From contig JANNXA010000007.1 of the NCBI GenBank assembly GCA_031409275.1, forward strand, positions 68,770 through 132,769: a DNA stretch of 64,000 nt, written 5' to 3'. Numbering within the stretch: position 1 is the stretch's first letter; the number at the start of each line of letters is the position of its first letter. Shown one piece after another: positions 43,642 through 54,234 of the stretch. The notes below the pieces were generated by a model, which did not search any database, was not told where the DNA came from, and was given only the letters and a program-made list of their open reading frames with translations. The stretch is from Planctomycetota bacterium. GTDB lineage: Bacteria; Planctomycetota; B15-G4; SIAN01. Position numbers and translations under genes: made by a program.

Positions 43642-44853
43642 TCAGCGCCCGCCGGCCGATGGCGGTGCGGCCCGCTTTGCTTTGATTTCGGCGAGCAGTT
43701 CCTCGACCTTCTTCCCCAACTCGTCGTCGCGCAGGTCCTTCGCGCGGATCACTCCGTTCGCGTCCAGGACGAAGATCGTCGGCCATCCGTGGACGTTCCA
43801 GTTCGAGGCGATCGGACCGGTCGTGCCGCCGCCATCCCAGAACGAGCGCCAGGTGATCCTCTCGCTTGCCATCGCCTTGCGCAGCGTCTCCTTCGGATCA
43901 CTGTTGACGCCGACCAGTGCGAAGGGCTCGTCCTTCAGCTTCTCCACGAGCGACCGCTCGTGCGGGATCATTGCCCGGCATGGGCCTCACCAGAATCCCC
44001 AGAAGTCGAGCACCACGACCTTCCCGCGGTAGTCCGAGAGCTTGAAAGCGACGCCGTCGACGTCCCATCCGACGATGTCGGGCGCGACCTTGCCGACCGC
44101 GAGGTGGCGCAGCGCGTAGAGCTCGCTCTCGACGGTCGTCCCCAGCGGCTTGCCGTTTCGCTTGAGCTGCTTCCATTCGGCCAGCACGTCTTCGAGGAGG
44201 TCCTCCGACTCCGCGCCGAGCTCCTCCGGGTCGCGCGCTTTCAGGTCGTCGATCGTCTCCTGACCGTAGTGCATCGCGTTCGCAGCGTCGCCGGCCGGCG
44301 GTGACGGCGATGAGTGGATGGAGGCCGCGAGTTCCGCAAGCCCGCTCAGCACCTGTGCCAGCGAATAAGTCGCCTGCCCCTTCGTCTCCCAATCGGCGCT
44401 CTTCGCGAGGACCGCGCGCAGGAAACGCTCGGCACCGAGCGATCGAGAGTAGAGGGTCATCGCGCTCACGGCGCCGATCACCCTGGGATCGGCGGCGTGG
44501 TCCTCGAGCAGTGCGTAGGCCGGCGCCTTCTGGCGCTCGTTCTCGCCGTGCAGCAGGATCCAGGAACAGGCGTCGATCGCGGCCGGAGTCCCCTTCGCTG
44601 GGGCGAGAAGCGCGAGGAAGCGCGGGATGTACTCGGGGATCTTCGGCATGTCGGCGCTGAAGATCCGCTGGCGCTCCTCGTCCGTGGTTGCGGCGGCGTA
44701 CTTCTGCTCGAAGGCGGCGCGCGCCGTGTCGTACTCCTTGACGAGCGCGGCGACCTGCGCCGAGACATCGGTCGTTGCCGACGATGGCGACGCCGCCGGC
44801 GATGGCTGGCGAATCGGCGCGACGAGCGCCAGGAGCAGGATCCAAGCGTGCAT
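43642..44853 (-). CDS. second exported TlpA/thioredoxin-like selenoprotein (UGPC; Sec at residue 289), 403 aa
   Basis: ORFs 43987..44868 and 43642..43971 share a frame and are joined by TGA 43987-43989: DFWGFW-TGA-GPCRAMIPHERSLV; signal peptide. Confidence 0.88.
43945..43962 (-). promoter_or_regulatory. putative SECIS hairpin, identical to 17528..17545
   Basis: CACGAGC-GGTC-GCTCGTG at the same distance from the UGA. Confidence 0.75.
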
Positions 44854-45736
44854 GGGATCACCTTCCACGGAAAGGGGCGCCTACAAGACGGCGCCATTGT
44901 GACGGCGGACGACGGACTCTGCCAGAAAACGCATCAGCGCTTCATTGCGCCGGACCAGTACTCCGACGGTCCGAGCCAGCCGTAGCGGATGCCGTCGGTC
45001 GTGAAGCTCGGTGCGCTCGTAGCCGCCGTCGTCGCCGAGCACCGCGACGCCGTCGTAGAACCACGGCGCGCTTTCCCAAGAAAAGTAGGCGTCGATCGAG
45101 ACGGAGTAGAGATCGACGCTCGGCTCAGGCGGACCTCCGCCTCCCAAAGAGCCGCGTTGACACGTCGGCGCCACCGTCGCGATGACAAGCATCGCAAGGA
45201 AGTCGCGGGCAGCTCGGCGAGGCGGCGCGCTGCAGGCGTCGGTCGACGACTCATGCGCACTCCGGATCGAACCGTCGGCGTCGCGGGGTACTCCTAGAAC
45301 AAACCATGCCGAGTCGGCCCTGCGGCGAAGAGCGGTGGCGGCGGCCTCACCGGGCACACTTCACCGTGATCGCGCTCGATTCACTGCGGGGCCGACACCG
45401 TCCGGCTCAGGCGTTCGACCGTCGGTTTTCGGCGGAGCTGTTGCCTCGACGCCGAGCAAGCTGGAGAGACCCGGTCGCGCGATCGGGCGGCGAAGCGCGA
45501 CGCCGTTGCAACGCTCCGAACGAGAAGAAGGTGCCCTCGACCCCGCCGGTCGCGCTCACGGCGGCTCAGCGTTCTCCCTGACCCTTCCCGCGAAGGGAGC
45601 ACGGGGCAGGGTGCGGAACTCGGCTTGCAATGCTCAAGCGTTCCGATCCCGAGGGTCGATGTTTCGGGGCGTTTGGCCCCAATCGCGGCACCGAGCTGTC
45701 CCGATCGACCCAAGAACCCACTGGAGCCTTTGATGA

Positions 45737-46870
45737 CTGCCTCGAGACCGTTCAGCTTTTGGCGCGTTTGCCATTCCATTGCTGCTCGCGATGGTGGGGG
45801 CGAAGGAAGCTTTCGGTCAGGGCTGAGTCGCCGCGCGTTCCAGTGCGCCCGTGGTTGGCGCACAAGGCAGCCCCTACCTCGCTCCCGATCAGTGGCAGTT
45901 CAACTTCGGCTATCGCTACCAGTTCTCGGACCGCCACTTCACCGGCACGAGCGAGGACGATGACCGTCAGAGCGGTGAGGCCCAGGTCAAGAACACCGTC
46001 CATCTGTTCGACTTCGGCTTCACGCGTGGTTGGAGCAAGCAGACGAGCATCTCGTTCTCGCTGCCGTTCCTCATCGCGAAGCGGTCGATCCCTGGCGTCA
46101 TTCGAAACACCTCCGGCGACATCGTCCGCGTGCCGAATGGCGAGAACCAGACTGGATCCCAGGGCATCGGCGACGTGAGCATCGTCGCCCGCCACTGGCT
46201 CCTCGACGTCGACGACCATCTCGATCAGAACATCTCGCTTGGCTTCGGCATCAAGTTGCCGACTGGCGATCCTGGGACCGAGGACTCGGTGGCGGTACGC
46301 GACAGCAAGGGCACCACCGACGACCCTTCCGATGACACGTTCACCAACGTGGTTCGCACGAACGATCAGTCGATCCAGCCGGGAGACGGCGGATTCGGAT
46401 TCATCCTCGACATGATGGCGTTCAAGCGGCTCGGCCTGTTCACTCCGTACGTGAGCGCCAGCTACCTCTTCAATCCGCAGGAGAAGAACGGCGTCGAGAC
46501 CTACCGCACGCTGAAGGGCGAGGAGATCATGTCGATCGCCGATCAGTACATCGCGCGGCTCGGAACCATGATCAACATCCCGGCCTGGGAGGGCGTGTCC
46601 GCCGGCATCGGCGGTCGTATCGAAGGCGTCCCGGTTCGCGACGCGATCGGCCAGGATGCAGGCTTCCGTCGGCCGGGCTACGCGCTGTCGATCGAGCCAC
46701 AACTGGTCTTCGCGCACGAGAAGGATGTCTTCTCAATCGCGATCCCGGTCGCGGTGCTTCGCGCGCGACACCGCAGCGTTGCCGATCAGGCGAGCGGCAT
46801 TCCGGGCCAACATGGCGACGCGGCGTTCGCCGACTGGGTTCTGCTGTTCAACTGGTCGCGCCGGTTCTGA
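45737..46870 (+). CDS. outer-membrane beta-barrel-like protein, probable selenoprotein (mature N-terminus QG-U-VAAR)
   Basis: ORF 45851..46870 extends upstream through TGA 45824-26 into a signal peptide (RDRSAFGAFAIPLLLAMVGAKEAFG); GIGDV and GIKLPTG motifs; C-terminal Phe; start uncertain (CTG 45737, or ATG 45733 with a 1-nt shift). Confidence 0.72.
45843..45863 (+). promoter_or_regulatory. putative SECIS hairpin GTGCGCC-CGTGGTT-GGCGCAC
   Basis: Perfect 7-bp stem starting 16 nt after the in-frame TGA; G-containing loop. Confidence 0.55.
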
Positions 46871-46900
46871 TCGGATCGGGTAACGAAAGACAGTGACCAC

Positions 46901-46946
46901 GCACGGCTCGGGCGCTTCGAACGGAAGCGCCCGAGCCGTGCCCTTT
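46901..46946 (+). terminator. 18-bp perfect hairpin downstream of the beta-barrel gene
   Basis: GCACGGCTCGGGCGCTTC-GAACG-GAAGCGCCCGAGCCGTGC then CCTTT. Confidence 0.65.
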
Positions 46947-47204
46947 CATGGCTCGTAATGCAGCCGAGTGGGGCGGTGATCGCGAGCCGGTTGCACGGAG
47001 AGCGCCGGCGCCGATGAATGATCGGTTCTGCGTTCGCAGCCGCTTCCGCGGTTCAATTTCGATGCTGGCTTGTGGTTGCTGGTGCGGAAGATCGTCGGAG
47101 CGGGGGCGAGTCGACCGCTTCGGCCGATTGCTCGCACCCGATGCGCTCGGTTCGCGCCGAGCCGCGGCGCGTACCATGCCACACCGCGAAATGGAGCGCT
47201 CGTG

Positions 47205-50200
47205 ATGTACCTCGGGCAGATCTGGATCGCGTCGCGCTTGCTCATCGCTGCCGGCGTCCCCGGCGAGGCACCGAAGCTCGAAGTCGGCAAGCCGATCAAG
47301 GGAGAGATCGGCGCCGACGCGCCGGTCGTCACGACGCCTGCGCTCGCGGCCAACTACACCGATGGGCCGACGCGCGCGAGCGCTTTTCGGCTCGTCTTGC
47401 CGAAGGGCGAGGCGGGACCGCTGACCCTCGATCTCGTCTCGCATCTCTTCGACGCCTACCTCGTCGTGCGCGCCGCGGATGGGACGTCACTCGCCGAGAA
47501 CGACGACGGCTGGCTGCGAACCCACGCGCAGCTCGTCCTCGACGCGACGCTGCTGGCGAAAGGCCCGCTCACCGTCGAAGCCGCGGCGCTCCACGGCGAG
47601 ACGGGGCCGTTCGAGCTCTCGCTGGTGCGTGGTGCCAGAGCGAAACCGGACGACGCGACGCTCACGCAGCTCGTACTCGAGGATCTGCGTGGGGAGGCGC
47701 GGGCCGTCGAGGCGGCGCGCGGACCCGATTCTCCGCGACTCGCGCAGGTGCTCCTCGACCTTGGGCGCGCGCTCGTCCGCGCCGGCGCTTTGGACGAGGC
47801 CGTGGCCGTGTTCGAACGAAGCCTCGACCTCAGCCGCCGCGTCTTCGGGGAGCATCATCGTGAAGCCGGCGTGCGTCGGAACGAGATCGGCGCGGCACTC
47901 GTTCACAGTGACCGCCTCGACGACGCGGTCATGCACTTCACCGAAGCGCTCGCCTGCTTCGACGTCGACGACCTCGCCGAATCGGAGAACGTCGAGCAGA
48001 TCCGCCTCGGGCTCGCGGTCGCGCAAGGCAGGCTCGGCCGTGACGGCGACGCGCTGCCGCAGTTCGAGGCGATCCTCGCGTCGATCGAGCGGCGAGCTGG
48101 TCCAGACGATCCGGCGCTGGTCGAGCCGCTGATTCGCGTCGCTCTCACGCGTCTCGCACTCGGGCTCCCGGGCGTCGATGCGCTGCGCGACCGCGCGCTG
48201 GCGATCTTCCGCGCAGCGAACGAGCCGATCGATGCGAATCGCTGCTACCTACTGAACAATCTGGCGACCCTCTGCACGCAATTGGGCGATCACGCGCGCG
48301 CACGGGACCTGAGCGAAGAGACATGGCACGCGGCGGCCCATGTTTTCGGCGAAACGCATCCGAATACGCTGGCACAGCTTCGGTACCTGGCGCAGGAACT
48401 GGTGCACCTTGGTCGCCATGACGAGGCGCGCGAACTCGCCGAACAGGGGCTCGCGATCAGCGAGCGCGCCTTCGGACCCGACAGCCTCGAGGTCGCAATG
48501 GCGCTCGACAACGTCGGCTTCTGCGCCCACCAAGATGGTGACACGCTCGCCGCGCACCGCTGCTTCGTCCGATCGCTCGCCCTCGAGGAGAGGCTCCTGG
48601 GATTCGACCACCCGACCACCTTGTTGACGGCGCGCAATCTCACGTTCCAGCTCAAGTTGCTCGGTGAGGTTGCGGCCGCGATCGAACTTTCCGAGCGGAC
48701 GATCGCCGCGAAGGTGGCGCGTTTCGGCGCTGAATCGGACGCGGTGGTCGACGCGCTCGGCAGCTTCGCGTACTTGCTACGGGACGCGGGGCTGCCAGGT
48801 CGGAGCGTCGAGGTCCGCGAACGGGTGCTCGCGACCCTGGAGCAGCGGCTGGGTCCTGACGATCCACGCACGCTCGACGCGCTCGACTTGCTGGGCATCA
48901 GCTGCGGAACGATGGGGGACTGGCCTCGAGTCGCTTCGATCGGTGCGGAGCTCTTGCGCCGTGCCGAGCGATCGAGCGGTCGCGGGTCGATCGACTACGC
49001 CCGCGGGCTGTTGCGATCGGCGCAGGTCGCGCGAGCGGGCGGGGATCCGCAGCGTGCGAAGGCGCTGATCGAGGAAGCGATCGAGGTCGAAGAGAAGCAC
49101 CCGATCACGAGCGACCTCGAGCTGGACGCATCGCTGTGGCTCCTCGGCAACGTCCTCAGCGACGACCTCGACGATCCGCGCGCGGCGGCCGACGTGTTGG
49201 AGCGCCGAATTCCGCTCGCGGAACGGGTCTACGGCAATCTTGATGGCGTGAGCACGAAAGCGCGCGCCCTGTTCGGCAGCACGCTCGCGTTGGGCGGGCA
49301 GTACGAGCGGGCCGAACCGGTCCTCGTGGCCGCGTTGCAGTTCGCGACGCAGCTCCAAGGACAGGACAGCCCGCTCGTCGCCGAGATCCGCGACCACCTC
49401 GGTCACACGCTGGACGGGCTAGGCAAACGGCGCGAGGCGCTCGAGCAATGGCTGGCCGCGATGGATTCGGGCGAGCGCCAGCTGCAGGCGAGCTTGCGCA
49501 GCGCGAACGCCGAGGAGCGGCTCGACCTCGTCCGCAGTCAGCGCCATCAACTGAATCACGTGCTCAGCGCGGCCGCGACCGGCGAGACAGCGATCGAGCC
49601 GGCGGCGCTTCACGAACGCATCTTGGTGTGGAAAGGGCAGGTCGCACGGAGTCTTGCGGCCACTCGCGAGCAGCTTTTCGACGCGCCAGGAGCGGGCGGG
49701 TCGGGTTCGGCGGCAACGACGGCAACGGCGGCGATCACGGCGCTCTTCGACGCGCAGCGGCGCCTCTCGCGCCTTGCCTTCTCCGATCCGGCCGACGTGA
49801 AGGACCTCGCCGATTCGCTGGCGCAGGTGCGCGCCGAGGTCGGTCAGCTCGAGCTCGAGGTCGGGAAGCTCGCGCCGGCGAAGGTGGCGGCGATGGCGTC
49901 GCTCGCGGAGGTGCGCGCGGCCCTTCCAGCGGATGCGGCCGCCATCGATTTCGTCGTCTACAACCGCTACGTGCGGGGAGCGACGGCGGAGAACGGCAAG
50001 TGGGTGCAATCCCATTGGGGCGAGGCGCGGCTCGCGGCGTTGGTCATGACCGCGGATCGGCACGAGTCGCGACTCGTCGACGTCGGCGACTGCGATGCGC
50101 TCGACGCCGCCGTCACGGCGTTCCTCGAGCAGATCGAGTCGAGCCGCGGTGCAGCGCCGGCTGCGGTGGCGAGCGGCGCCGGCGACGCCGGCCGACTGCT

Positions 50201-51221
50201 GTCGGAGCGGCTGTGGGCACCGCTCGCACCGCTGCTCGCTGGCGCGAAGCTCGTCGTGATCTCGCCTGATGCCTTCCTCGGCAAGCTGCCGTTCCAGCTG
50301 ATCCCCGACACCGAGGGCAAGCCGCTGATCGAGACGCTCGCCATCGTCTGCGTGCAGGATCTCTCGGCGTTGCCGAAGCTCGTCCTCCCGCGTGAGGCTG
50401 CGTCCGCGACGGCATCGCTGCTGGTCGCGGGTGGCGTCGACTACGACGCGCAAGACACGGCCGCGGGAGCTCCCGTGGCCGCCGGCGGCGGCACCCGCAG
50501 CGCCTCGACCCGCGCCTTCACGAGCTTCTGGGAGCCGCTGCGTGCGACGTCCGCTGAAGCGTCGGCGGTCGCGCGGCTCCACAAGCTTGCATTCGCGGGC
50601 ACGGCAACGCAGGTCGAACTCACCGGCGCGCTCGCCAGCGAAGAGCGCGTGAAGGAGGAGCTGCCGCGCGCGCGCTTCGTCCATCTCGCGACCCACGGCT
50701 TCTTCGAGCCGGAAGGGACCCCGTCGATGCTCGCGACGGTGCGCACGCCCGAAGTCGGCAGCAAGGACGCGCCCGTCGCTGCCCCGCGCCTTCTTCCCGG
50801 CTTCCTGTCGGGGATCGTCTGCGCCGGCGCGAACGTCAAGTCGCCGACCCATCAGGTGCGGGACGACGGCTATCTGAGCGCCGAGGAGCTCTCGTGGTTC
50901 GACTTGCGCGGGGTCGAGCTCGTCGTGCTGTCGGCGTGCGAGACGGGGCTTGGTCGACCCGAGCCAGCCGAAGGGTTGCTCGGGCTGCGTCGGACGTTGC
51001 GCGATGCTGGCGTGAGGACGGTGATCAGTTCGCTGTGGAAGGTCGATGACGAGGCGACCTGCGAGCTGATGAAGCGCTTCTACGTCAACCTCTGGCAGAA
51101 GAAGCAGGGCAAGCTCGAGGCGCTGCGCGGCGCGCAGCTCTCGATGCTGCACGATGGCAACGCGAAGTGGCGCCGGCCCGCGGCGTGGGCGGCGTTCGTG
51201 CTCGACGGAGCGTGGAACTGA
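47205..51221 (+). CDS. TPR-repeat CHAT (caspase-like) domain protein with N-terminal PPC-like domain
   Basis: FDAYLVV...ENDDG; many G.DHP-type TPRs; ISPD..L..LPF, HLATHG, LSACETG, SLWKVDD, EALR.AQ, WAAF. Confidence 0.9.
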   Translation: MYLGQIWIASRLLIAAGVPGEAPKLEVGKPIKGEIGADAPVVTTPALAANYTDGPTRASAFRLVLPKGEAGPLTLDLVSHLFDAYLVVRAADGTSLAENDDGWLRTHAQLVLDATLLAKGPLTVEAAALHGETGPFELSLVRGARAKPDDATLTQLVLEDLRGEARAVEAARGPDSPRLAQVLLDLGRALVRAGALDEAVAVFERSLDLSRRVFGEHHREAGVRRNEIGAALVHSDRLDDAVMHFTEALACFDVDDLAESENVEQIRLGLAVAQGRLGRDGDALPQFEAILASIERRAGPDDPALVEPLIRVALTRLALGLPGVDALRDRALAIFRAANEPIDANRCYLLNNLATLCTQLGDHARARDLSEETWHAAAHVFGETHPNTLAQLRYLAQELVHLGRHDEARELAEQGLAISERAFGPDSLEVAMALDNVGFCAHQDGDTLAAHRCFVRSLALEERLLGFDHPTTLLTARNLTFQLKLLGEVAAAIELSERTIAAKVARFGAESDAVVDALGSFAYLLRDAGLPGRSVEVRERVLATLEQRLGPDDPRTLDALDLLGISCGTMGDWPRVASIGAELLRRAERSSGRGSIDYARGLLRSAQVARAGGDPQRAKALIEEAIEVEEKHPITSDLELDASLWLLGNVLSDDLDDPRAAADVLERRIPLAERVYGNLDGVSTKARALFGSTLALGGQYERAEPVLVAALQFATQLQGQDSPLVAEIRDHLGHTLDGLGKRREALEQWLAAMDSGERQLQASLRSANAEERLDLVRSQRHQLNHVLSAAATGETAIEPAALHERILVWKGQVARSLAATREQLFDAPGAGGSGSAATTATAAITALFDAQRRLSRLAFSDPADVKDLADSLAQVRAEVGQLELEVGKLAPAKVAAMASLAEVRAALPADAAAIDFVVYNRYVRGATAENGKWVQSHWGEARLAALVMTADRHESRLVDVGDCDALDAAVTAFLEQIESSRGAAPAAVASGAGDAGRLLSERLWAPLAPLLAGAKLVVISPDAFLGKLPFQLIPDTEGKPLIETLAIVCVQDLSALPKLVLPREAASATASLLVAGGVDYDAQDTAAGAPVAAGGGTRSASTRAFTSFWEPLRATSAEASAVARLHKLAFAGTATQVELTGALASEERVKEELPRARFVHLATHGFFEPEGTPSMLATVRTPEVGSKDAPVAAPRLLPGFLSGIVCAGANVKSPTHQVRDDGYLSAEELSWFDLRGVELVVLSACETGLGRPEPAEGLLGLRRTLRDAGVRTVISSLWKVDDEATCELMKRFYVNLWQKKQGKLEALRGAQLSMLHDGNAKWRRPAAWAAFVLDGAWN

Positions 51222-51303
51222 GAGCGCCGTCCCCGCCGCATTCCTTCGGTTGCACGATCGCCGTCGATGGGCCGAGTTCGGACGGTTAACAGACAACATC
51301 AAG

Positions 51304-51334
51304 TTCTTGACATCGTCCAGAAGATGGCTCGACT
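51304..51334 (+). promoter_or_regulatory. candidate sigma70 promoter (-35 TTGACA 51307-12) overlapped by an imperfect palindrome, a likely Fur-family operator
   Basis: TTCTTGACATCGTCCAGAA directly upstream of fur; possible -10 TCGACT at 51329-34. Confidence 0.55.
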
Positions 51335-51344
51335 GGCGGCCCGA

Positions 51345-54234
<2,890 letters not shown>

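Follow-up and report, generated by a model that had tools for sequence, protein, structure and literature searches.

The barrel gene and its in-frame TGA

The window analysed here, a stretch of 64,000 nucleotides from a Planctomycetota bacterium, contains on its forward strand a 339-aa open reading frame (45851..46870) whose translation has a C-terminal Phe and no Cys, and which looks like an outer-membrane barrel lacking its signal peptide. The question raised by this locus is whether a TGA just upstream is read as selenocysteine (Sec), restoring an exported protein, and what a selenocysteine might do in an outer-membrane barrel. The frame upstream of the ORF crosses this TGA (45824-26) and then runs 29 codons back to CTG 45737, where two consecutive TGA codons (45731-36) close it. 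The initial annotation, made from the sequence alone, had described the barrel-like ORF with its terminal Phe and had proposed that reading upstream through the TGA supplies the signal peptide. The ORF is as it described, and the read-through frame does supply a signal-like stretch of 27 codons. The features of the gene are the following:

45723..45726, + strand: GGAG, ribosome-binding-site-like by its sequence and aligning with the GGAG of genome G358
45733..45739, + strand: start region, with ATG 45733-35 one base out of frame and CTG 45737-39 as the first in-frame codon after the two TGA codons
45737..45817, + strand: predicted signal peptide of 27 codons, with signal-peptidase-I-type cleavage probably before Q1, judging from the residues at -1 and -3
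45818..45892, + strand: mature residues 1-25, predicted lumen plug with U3 and R7 (alignment to the N-terminus of 4RL8; low pLDDT)
45824..45826, + strand: in-frame TGA, putative selenocysteine at mature residue 3 (Q-G-U), from the TGA or Cys codon at this column in homologous loci
45843..45863, + strand: bacterial SECIS hairpin with a 7-bp stem and a 7-nt loop whose second base is G, from covariation in the family; it fits the consensus in section 5 of PMC13188914
45893..46870, + strand: predicted outer-membrane beta-barrel with terminal Phe and TGA stop 46868-70 (AlphaFold2 model, structure search)

Selenocysteine and cysteine in homologous loci

A protein search gave 3945 matches, and we inspected the top 119, leaving the query aside. 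Among these, 116 begin just past the Sec column, one is a fragment and two carry a signal peptide followed by Q-G-C, the motif that the initial annotation had named for related proteins. Thus, gene callers cut the barrel gene at the UGA and the family stays hidden as a signal-less 'hypothetical protein'. When 1.84 billion representatives were searched with a profile, 1796 matched, and among the matches 1,023 representatives, clustered at 50% identity, have an E of 1e-10 or lower. In the best 150 of these 1796, the column is covered by 75 sequences and all 75 have Cys; 52 begin just past the column, 18 are fragments and 5 are unaligned, four of the latter with a G-C motif and one (P0203) without it.

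Regarding the DNA, we collected 96 loci (L020-L115): two on genome contigs, 79 in metagenomes (the best 79 of 492) and another 15, the window copy being one of them, in a sample of the phylum. Four of the 96 lack the N-terminus and 92 have the motif, of which 88 are distinct; these 88 include five distantly related loci, L110-L114 (L113 with an hhalign probability of 97.8%). The column holds TGA in 59 and TGC or TGT in 29 of the 88 distinct loci, whose metagenome share is the best 79 of 492, and no other codon was found there. Between the column and the gene end no further TGA occurs in the 92 loci, and one TAA was seen (L049). An order-wide search found Q-G-TGA in four further genomes or copies, and besides numerous metagenome contigs, 14 other genomes of GTDB keep the UGA. 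A barrel match was obtained in 14 of the 401 genomes that make up the phylum sample.

For 84 rows, 54 with Sec and 30 with Cys, a quick maximum-likelihood tree was built with the Sec/Cys column excluded, leaving out five truncated loci and L049 and adding P0041 and P0081. It needs 11 changes between Sec and Cys, 10 of them forced by starred (well-supported) branches. With at least 10 forced switches, the chalcogen has been kept through repeated switching.

The initial annotation had also stressed a lone Sec. This holds for the window copy, which has no other Cys, but not for the family at large: in 34 of 86 loci another Cys stands no more than 24 residues away, in the presumed plug, and the window copy is among the 52 without one. 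As a separate observation, a vicinal Sec-Cys pair, Q-G-U-C, stands at the mature N-terminus in L021:5058, L023:4025, L119 and L120 (same-genus genomes G293, G414 and G413).

The SECIS hairpin and the selenocysteine machinery

The perfect 7-bp hairpin with a G in its loop, reported to begin 16 nt past the TGA, was confirmed with arms at 45843-49 and 45857-63; its loop lies 23 nt past the UGA and its energy is -11.6 kcal/mol. The bSECIS model, as given in PMC13188914, has a loop of 3-9 nt, a stem of 4-16 bp, G in the first two loop positions, a spacing of 16-37 nt and an energy of at most -7.5 kcal/mol. The window hairpin falls within all these ranges according to our own script, written after that published model and distinct from bSECISearch. 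Single-sequence folding of 77 nt was not significant against shuffles (z 0.61), the hairpin being present in the centroid and absent from the minimum-energy structure. Furthermore, among 3000 random TGA sites of the same genome (69% GC), 14.4% reach -7.5 and 3.2% reach -11.6 kcal/mol. The window hairpin alone is therefore within chance, whereas across the family the hairpin is beyond chance.

Five core pairs in a fixed register are present in 51 of the 59 TGA loci and in 1 of the 29 Cys loci (the metagenome share again being the best 79 of 492), and the eight failures include all four distant TGA loci. The general bSECIS test was passed by 53/59 TGA loci and 6/29 Cys loci. In the 55 core TGA loci 92.5% of the cells pair, compared with 19.5-48.8% in slid controls. 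Changes on both sides of a pair were found in 29 cells, compared with 7.6 on average after shuffling, with 0 of 500 shuffles as high and 5 of 7 pairs affected; these counts are inflated by the kinship of the rows and by the structure having been taken from the window sequence. The contrast between TGA and Cys forms is explained neither by row kinship nor by the window-derived structure. Several of the compensatory changes alter encoded residues in pairs, so the RNA structure constrains the protein at the SECIS. A scan of 15 loci at the Rfam gathering cut-off gave 0 matches.

The genome of the window (5.59 Mb, 92.9% complete, 69% GC) contains all four genes of the machinery, a check that the initial annotation had suggested: selA (484 bits), selB (334), selD (338) and tRNA-Sec (selC, 76 bits), all above curated cut-offs. 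The tRNA-Sec has the anticodon TCA, selD has one in-frame TGA, and both selD and a neighbouring redoxin gene carry hairpins comparable to that of the barrel. We also found selB in 13 of the 14 other genomes with the TGA form, which is weak evidence because 288 of the 401 phylum genomes (72%) have it. An exception is G178 (90% complete), with a TGA form and intact hairpin (L106/L129) upstream of a B12-dependent methionine synthase gene. It has no selB at 1e-60, no selA above cut-off and a marginal 50.6-bit tRNA-Sec match; an incomplete bin, a mis-binned contig or a recent loss are possible reasons. Apart from this family, selB above cut-off in 288/401 Planctomycetota genomes is a large proportion, given how little the selenoproteome papers searched deal with this group.

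The column, the SECIS covariation and the machinery bear out the Sec reading, and on this comparison of sequences TGA 45824-26 is almost certainly read as selenocysteine. None of the outcomes named beforehand as refuting it was found: no non-Cys residue occupies the column, TGA and hairpin are kept in many genomes and the machinery is present.

Signal peptide, barrel and plug

In the 86 loci, the residue at -1 is always small (A in 69, G in 14, S in 3) and that at -3 always small or aliphatic; the first mature residue is Q in 82, and the distance from the chalcogen to the cleavage site is fixed in all 86. Pfam and NCBIfam scans of the window protein gave no match. The AlphaFold2 model of the mature chain, from a 61-row alignment, had a mean pLDDT of 90.8 and a pTM of 0.88, with pLDDT 51 and 68 over residues 1-20 and 51 at U3. 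A structure search of 48,161 chains placed 4RL8 (Pput2725) on top (Z 23.8, rmsd 2.6, 253 aligned, 13% identity), followed by FapF, 5O65 (Z 21.7, rmsd 3.3, 251 aligned), and then by autotransporter barrels with Z 18.9 and lower. By sequence profile only FapF was found (E 7.6e-11, positions 60-245).

The N-terminal 14 residues of Pput2725 fill its lumen from the periplasmic side, according to PMC4493636. Residue 7 onward of our model aligns with residue 2 onward of 4RL8, at pLDDT 51-68 over this segment. This correspondence places U3 on the presumed plug, and we infer that the N-terminal segment with U3 may occupy the lumen as a plug. There are 21 charged or His positions conserved in at least 90% of the family, ten of them Arg, and R7 on the plug is conserved in 93%. 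R33, N59, R89, D119, K146, R247, R267, E269 and D339 are conserved too and probably lie on the polar strand face, as judged from hydrophobic alternation and not from coordinates. The P-T-G motif of the lateral cluster is kept and H40 is conserved. We are highly confident that these are widespread, exported 12-strand outer-membrane channels with a COG4313/FapF-like fold, in which mature residue 3 is either Sec, inserted via SelB and SECIS, or Cys.

Relation to known families

The family belongs to two known kinds at once, bacterial selenoproteins and COG4313/FapF-like channels. It shares with COG4313/PF13557 (Phenol_MetA_deg) and its member Pput2725 the fold, the short N-terminal segment before strand 1 and the P-T-G motif. 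PF13557 has a precomputed match in 4 of 120 homologues, is marginal or sub-threshold in some relatives and has none in the window ORF. What sets the window family apart from Pput2725 is that mature residue 3 is invariably Sec or Cys and that numerous charged residues are conserved; in PMC4493636 the word 'cysteine' is absent and the known COG4313 cargoes are hydrophobic. As for FapF (NF058560), in addition to the fold likeness 19 of 61 family members match its model (best E 3.5e-8). However, this similarity is weak and partial: the window protein has no NF058560 match and only 25 residues before strand 1, and fap genes are absent among the recurring neighbours.

The GSU2204 family (NF041027, MtrB/PioB-type) and the FCYXU TonB-dependent receptor (NF049945) are likewise exported barrels with a predicted Sec, and they are the only outer-membrane barrels among the 119 families in Table 1 of the 2026 catalogue (PMC13188914). 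However, the window protein and the 61 members gave 0 matches to either model, and size, fold class and motif differ. YeeE/YedE (PF04143, GUxSG; same Table 1) is likewise a Sec/Cys transport protein, but it is inner-membrane, helical and unrelated in sequence and fold, the analogy being functional only.

The barrel family is absent from that 119-family table, and none of the 61 members matched a selenoprotein model of NCBIfam release 20.0, which covers the NCBIfam models cited in the table. Term searches did not find it in the main texts of deep-Sep (PMC12013277), SelCysML (PMC13745706) and bioRxiv 2022.07.06.499078, nor in the main text and species-list supplement of BSepDB (PMC13326102). A full-text literature search, within the texts it reaches, found no selenoprotein paired with COG4313, and related searches gave the same result. 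The family is apparently uncatalogued, although Haft and Tolstoy 2025, Deng et al. 2026 and the contents of BSepDB could still include it.

Catalogued bacterial selenoproteins are nearly all soluble redox enzymes, the two listed outer-membrane barrels being unrelated to this one. With this large mixed Sec/Cys family, selenium chemistry within a pore for transport could be put to the test, and the family occurs in soil and sediment lineages poorly covered by selenoproteome surveys. Cys forms are found in cultured bacteria, for instance WP_348970656.1 of Chondrinema litorale, which makes experiments feasible.

Neighbouring genes

About 870 nt upstream of the barrel gene, on the opposite strand, starts a gene that is in all likelihood a second hidden selenoprotein of the window, of a catalogued kind:

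43642..44868, - strand: divergent secreted TlpA/ResA-like redoxin with a predicted U-x-x-C, TGA 43989-87 and a SECIS-like hairpin at 43962-43945

Its hairpin has 7 bp and a loop starting with GG, and lies 31 nt past its TGA.

The neighbour scans covered selected ORFs (30, 69 and 19 proteins). We found a TlpA/ResA-like CxxC gene in the fetched flanks of 15 of the 88 loci, mostly right behind the barrel. Among the loci with at least 800 nt of downstream sequence it is present in 14/59 (11/38 Sec forms, 3/21 Cys forms), while the window's own 5.6-Mb genome has 13 TlpA-type genes, around 0.02 per 8 kb. The positive loci fall into about six lineages of the tree and thus are not 15 independent events. 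The initial annotation had set this barrel apart from typical redox selenoenzymes; since TlpA-type thiol reductases are found next to the barrel more often than any other gene, that contrast stands only in part and a redox role has to be kept in view.

A fused MFS/spermidine-synthase-like gene (NF037959) lies behind the barrel in seven Sec loci, and none of the Cys loci examined has it there:

L020:6140, L023, L025, L029, L034, L041, L044: loci with the MFS/spermidine-synthase-like gene

In the window's own genome this gene is on another contig (G000:C16:29577-32036). In L098 and L037, deiodinase-like and DUF3179 genes with an in-frame TGA adjoin the barrel. Three distant Sec barrels (L122-L124, in G279, G223 and G097), with C-G-U or V-G-U near the N-terminus and hairpins outside the register of the core family, adjoin TusA and DsrE genes, and two of them are also beside a cobalamin-independent methionine-synthase-like gene; these surroundings are possibly a sulfur/selenium relay cluster. 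Another distant Sec barrel, L125 (G078), was observed upstream of DUF4266, DUF3570 and ApbE genes. TonB-dependent receptor genes lie right behind some Cys forms. Among the neighbours examined there were no recurring metal transporters or regulators, and no metal-handling, catabolic or amyloid operon or fap genes.

In the window itself, a 1383-aa TPR and CHAT-domain protein (47070..51221, +), whose recurrence elsewhere was not seen, directly follows the barrel. Further on, 4.4 kb downstream, a Fur/PerR-like and then a catalase-peroxidase-like ORF, both named by eye from their translations, occupy 51267..54234 (+).

A possible mechanism and its alternatives

We suggest that, after cleavage, the N-terminal segment would fold into the lumen from the periplasmic side. 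The selenol or thiol of the plug, often with a second plug Cys, would transiently capture a small polar thiophilic substrate such as a sulfur or selenium oxyanion, a thiol compound or a soft metal(loid) species, guided by the conserved lumenal Arg, Asp and Glu. A periplasmic TlpA-type reductase would then reset the selenenylsulfide or adduct, and the substrate would be released to the periplasm. The conserved residues of the polar face, the TlpA neighbours, the second plug Cys (34/86), the other selenoprotein genes close to the barrel (in the window, L098 and L037) and the TusA/DsrE genes beside distant relatives in three genomes argue for such a capture. Against it count the 45 of 59 loci with downstream sequence that lack TlpA, the partial kinship of the 15 positives, the lack of a recurring metal-handling operon, the low confidence of the modelled plug and the hydrophobic molecules imported by characterised COG4313 members (PMC4493636). 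Taken as a whole, that is, the Sec/Cys channel family together with transient capture and reset by TlpA, this reading is a tentative one, somewhat short of an even chance, in which the location of the plug, the cargo and the chemistry are the presumptive parts.

A bolder version, which we regard as doubtful, is that the plug Sec forms a transient Se-S or Se-Se adduct and hands its cargo to TlpA or to TusA/DsrE-type carriers. The YeeE/YedE thiosulfate transporter works with a TusA-like carrier via a cysteine relay. If such a covalent relay existed in the barrel, it would be the outer-membrane counterpart of the YeeE relay and a candidate specific route of selenium or sulfur uptake, and selenium supply would also gate the synthesis and export of the channel itself. 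According to PMC13188914, prokaryotes have no known transport system that is specific for selenium and of high affinity, and a selenol-plugged channel is therefore worth considering for that role.

The capture mechanism has to be weighed against other functions of a real Sec/Cys channel. In the first, the N-terminal X-G-U/C would be a plain metal ligand chelating Ni, Co, Cu or Hg with no redox cycling. The constant spacing between chalcogen and cleavage site (86/86 loci), the conserved H40 and acidic residues and the TonB-dependent receptors behind some Cys forms are consistent with it. However, an N-terminal Gln often cyclises to pyroglutamate, losing its free amine, and this would often happen to Q1, present in 82 of the 86 loci. 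Furthermore, many of the conserved lumen residues are Arg, no metal transporter or regulator recurs among the neighbours and no Rfam element was found in the 15 loci scanned, so we consider this reading unlikely, though it is the strongest competitor.

In the second, residue 3 would be a redox gate or a structural anchor, through a plug disulfide, a selenenylsulfide or an inter-subunit diselenide, and the cargo an organic molecule or a polypeptide, as in SphA/TcpY or FapF. The nearest sequences and folds are indeed FapF and Pput2725, the lateral-cluster P-T-G is kept, and the second plug Cys and the TlpA neighbours fit a gate equally well. Nevertheless, the 52/86 loci without a second Cys within 24 residues include the window copy, and neither a catabolic nor an amyloid operon recurs; this explanation is rather unlikely.

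Much less probable is that the UGA does not encode Sec and is instead a stop, leaving a pseudogene or a shortened periplasmic-less product from GTG 45851, or codes for Trp, Gly or Cys. The lack of detectable machinery in G178 and a hairpin that alone is unremarkable at 69% GC would fit this. However, 59 distinct loci have the TGA at the same column, where its only alternative is Cys, no other internal TGA exists in 92 loci, the hairpin is lost in 28 of 29 Cys forms and the genome has a tRNA-Sec. The barrel gene's own stop is TGA, which also rules out an alternative genetic code. Finally, that Sec is the lipidated +1 residue of a lipoprotein is the least probable reading and can mostly be rejected: a hydrophobic signal and G at -1 do precede the residue and 16/86 loci fit a PROSITE-type lipobox pattern, but 70/86, the window copy included, do not, and cleavage two positions before the residue agrees with the (-3,-1) rule in every one of the 86.

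The start of the window copy

The Sec/Cys channel family thus remains the preferred reading, and this conclusion is independent of whether the window copy is translated. An in-frame ATG lies 17-48 codons before the Sec/Cys in 72 of 77 loci and is missing in the window copy, where a full signal peptide can be obtained only from CTG 45737. The initial annotation had warned about this start, and rightly so: ATG 45733 misses the frame by one base, and CTG 45737 is the first in-frame option. The GGAG lies 6 nt from the ATG and 10 nt from the CTG. A scan for Sigma-70 promoters over 44800-47100 found none.

Contigs of runs X1 and X2, one each, span 45300-47000 with zero differing letters and zero gaps; both runs belong to one study and are possibly the source of the window DNA, and contigs lose rare variants. 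An assembly error behind the missing start is thus unsupported, as the two contigs agree with the window. The slip suspected at TTTT 45757-60 finds no support in them either, and the alignment with the closest relative, weak because of its low identity, keeps the frame up to the CTG and places a one-base offset at the start codon. With no in-frame ATG and no indel in the two contigs, the window copy either starts at CTG or is frameshifted, and we hold it about equally probable that translation begins at CTG and that the copy is a genuine selenoprotein gene recently turned into a pseudogene by a frameshift. In the same genus, G413 has a frameshift around 22 codons past its TGA and no match to the barrel was found in G210; together with the MFS/synthase gene, which comes after the barrel in close relatives, lying on another contig, this hints at decay of the locus in the genus of the window.
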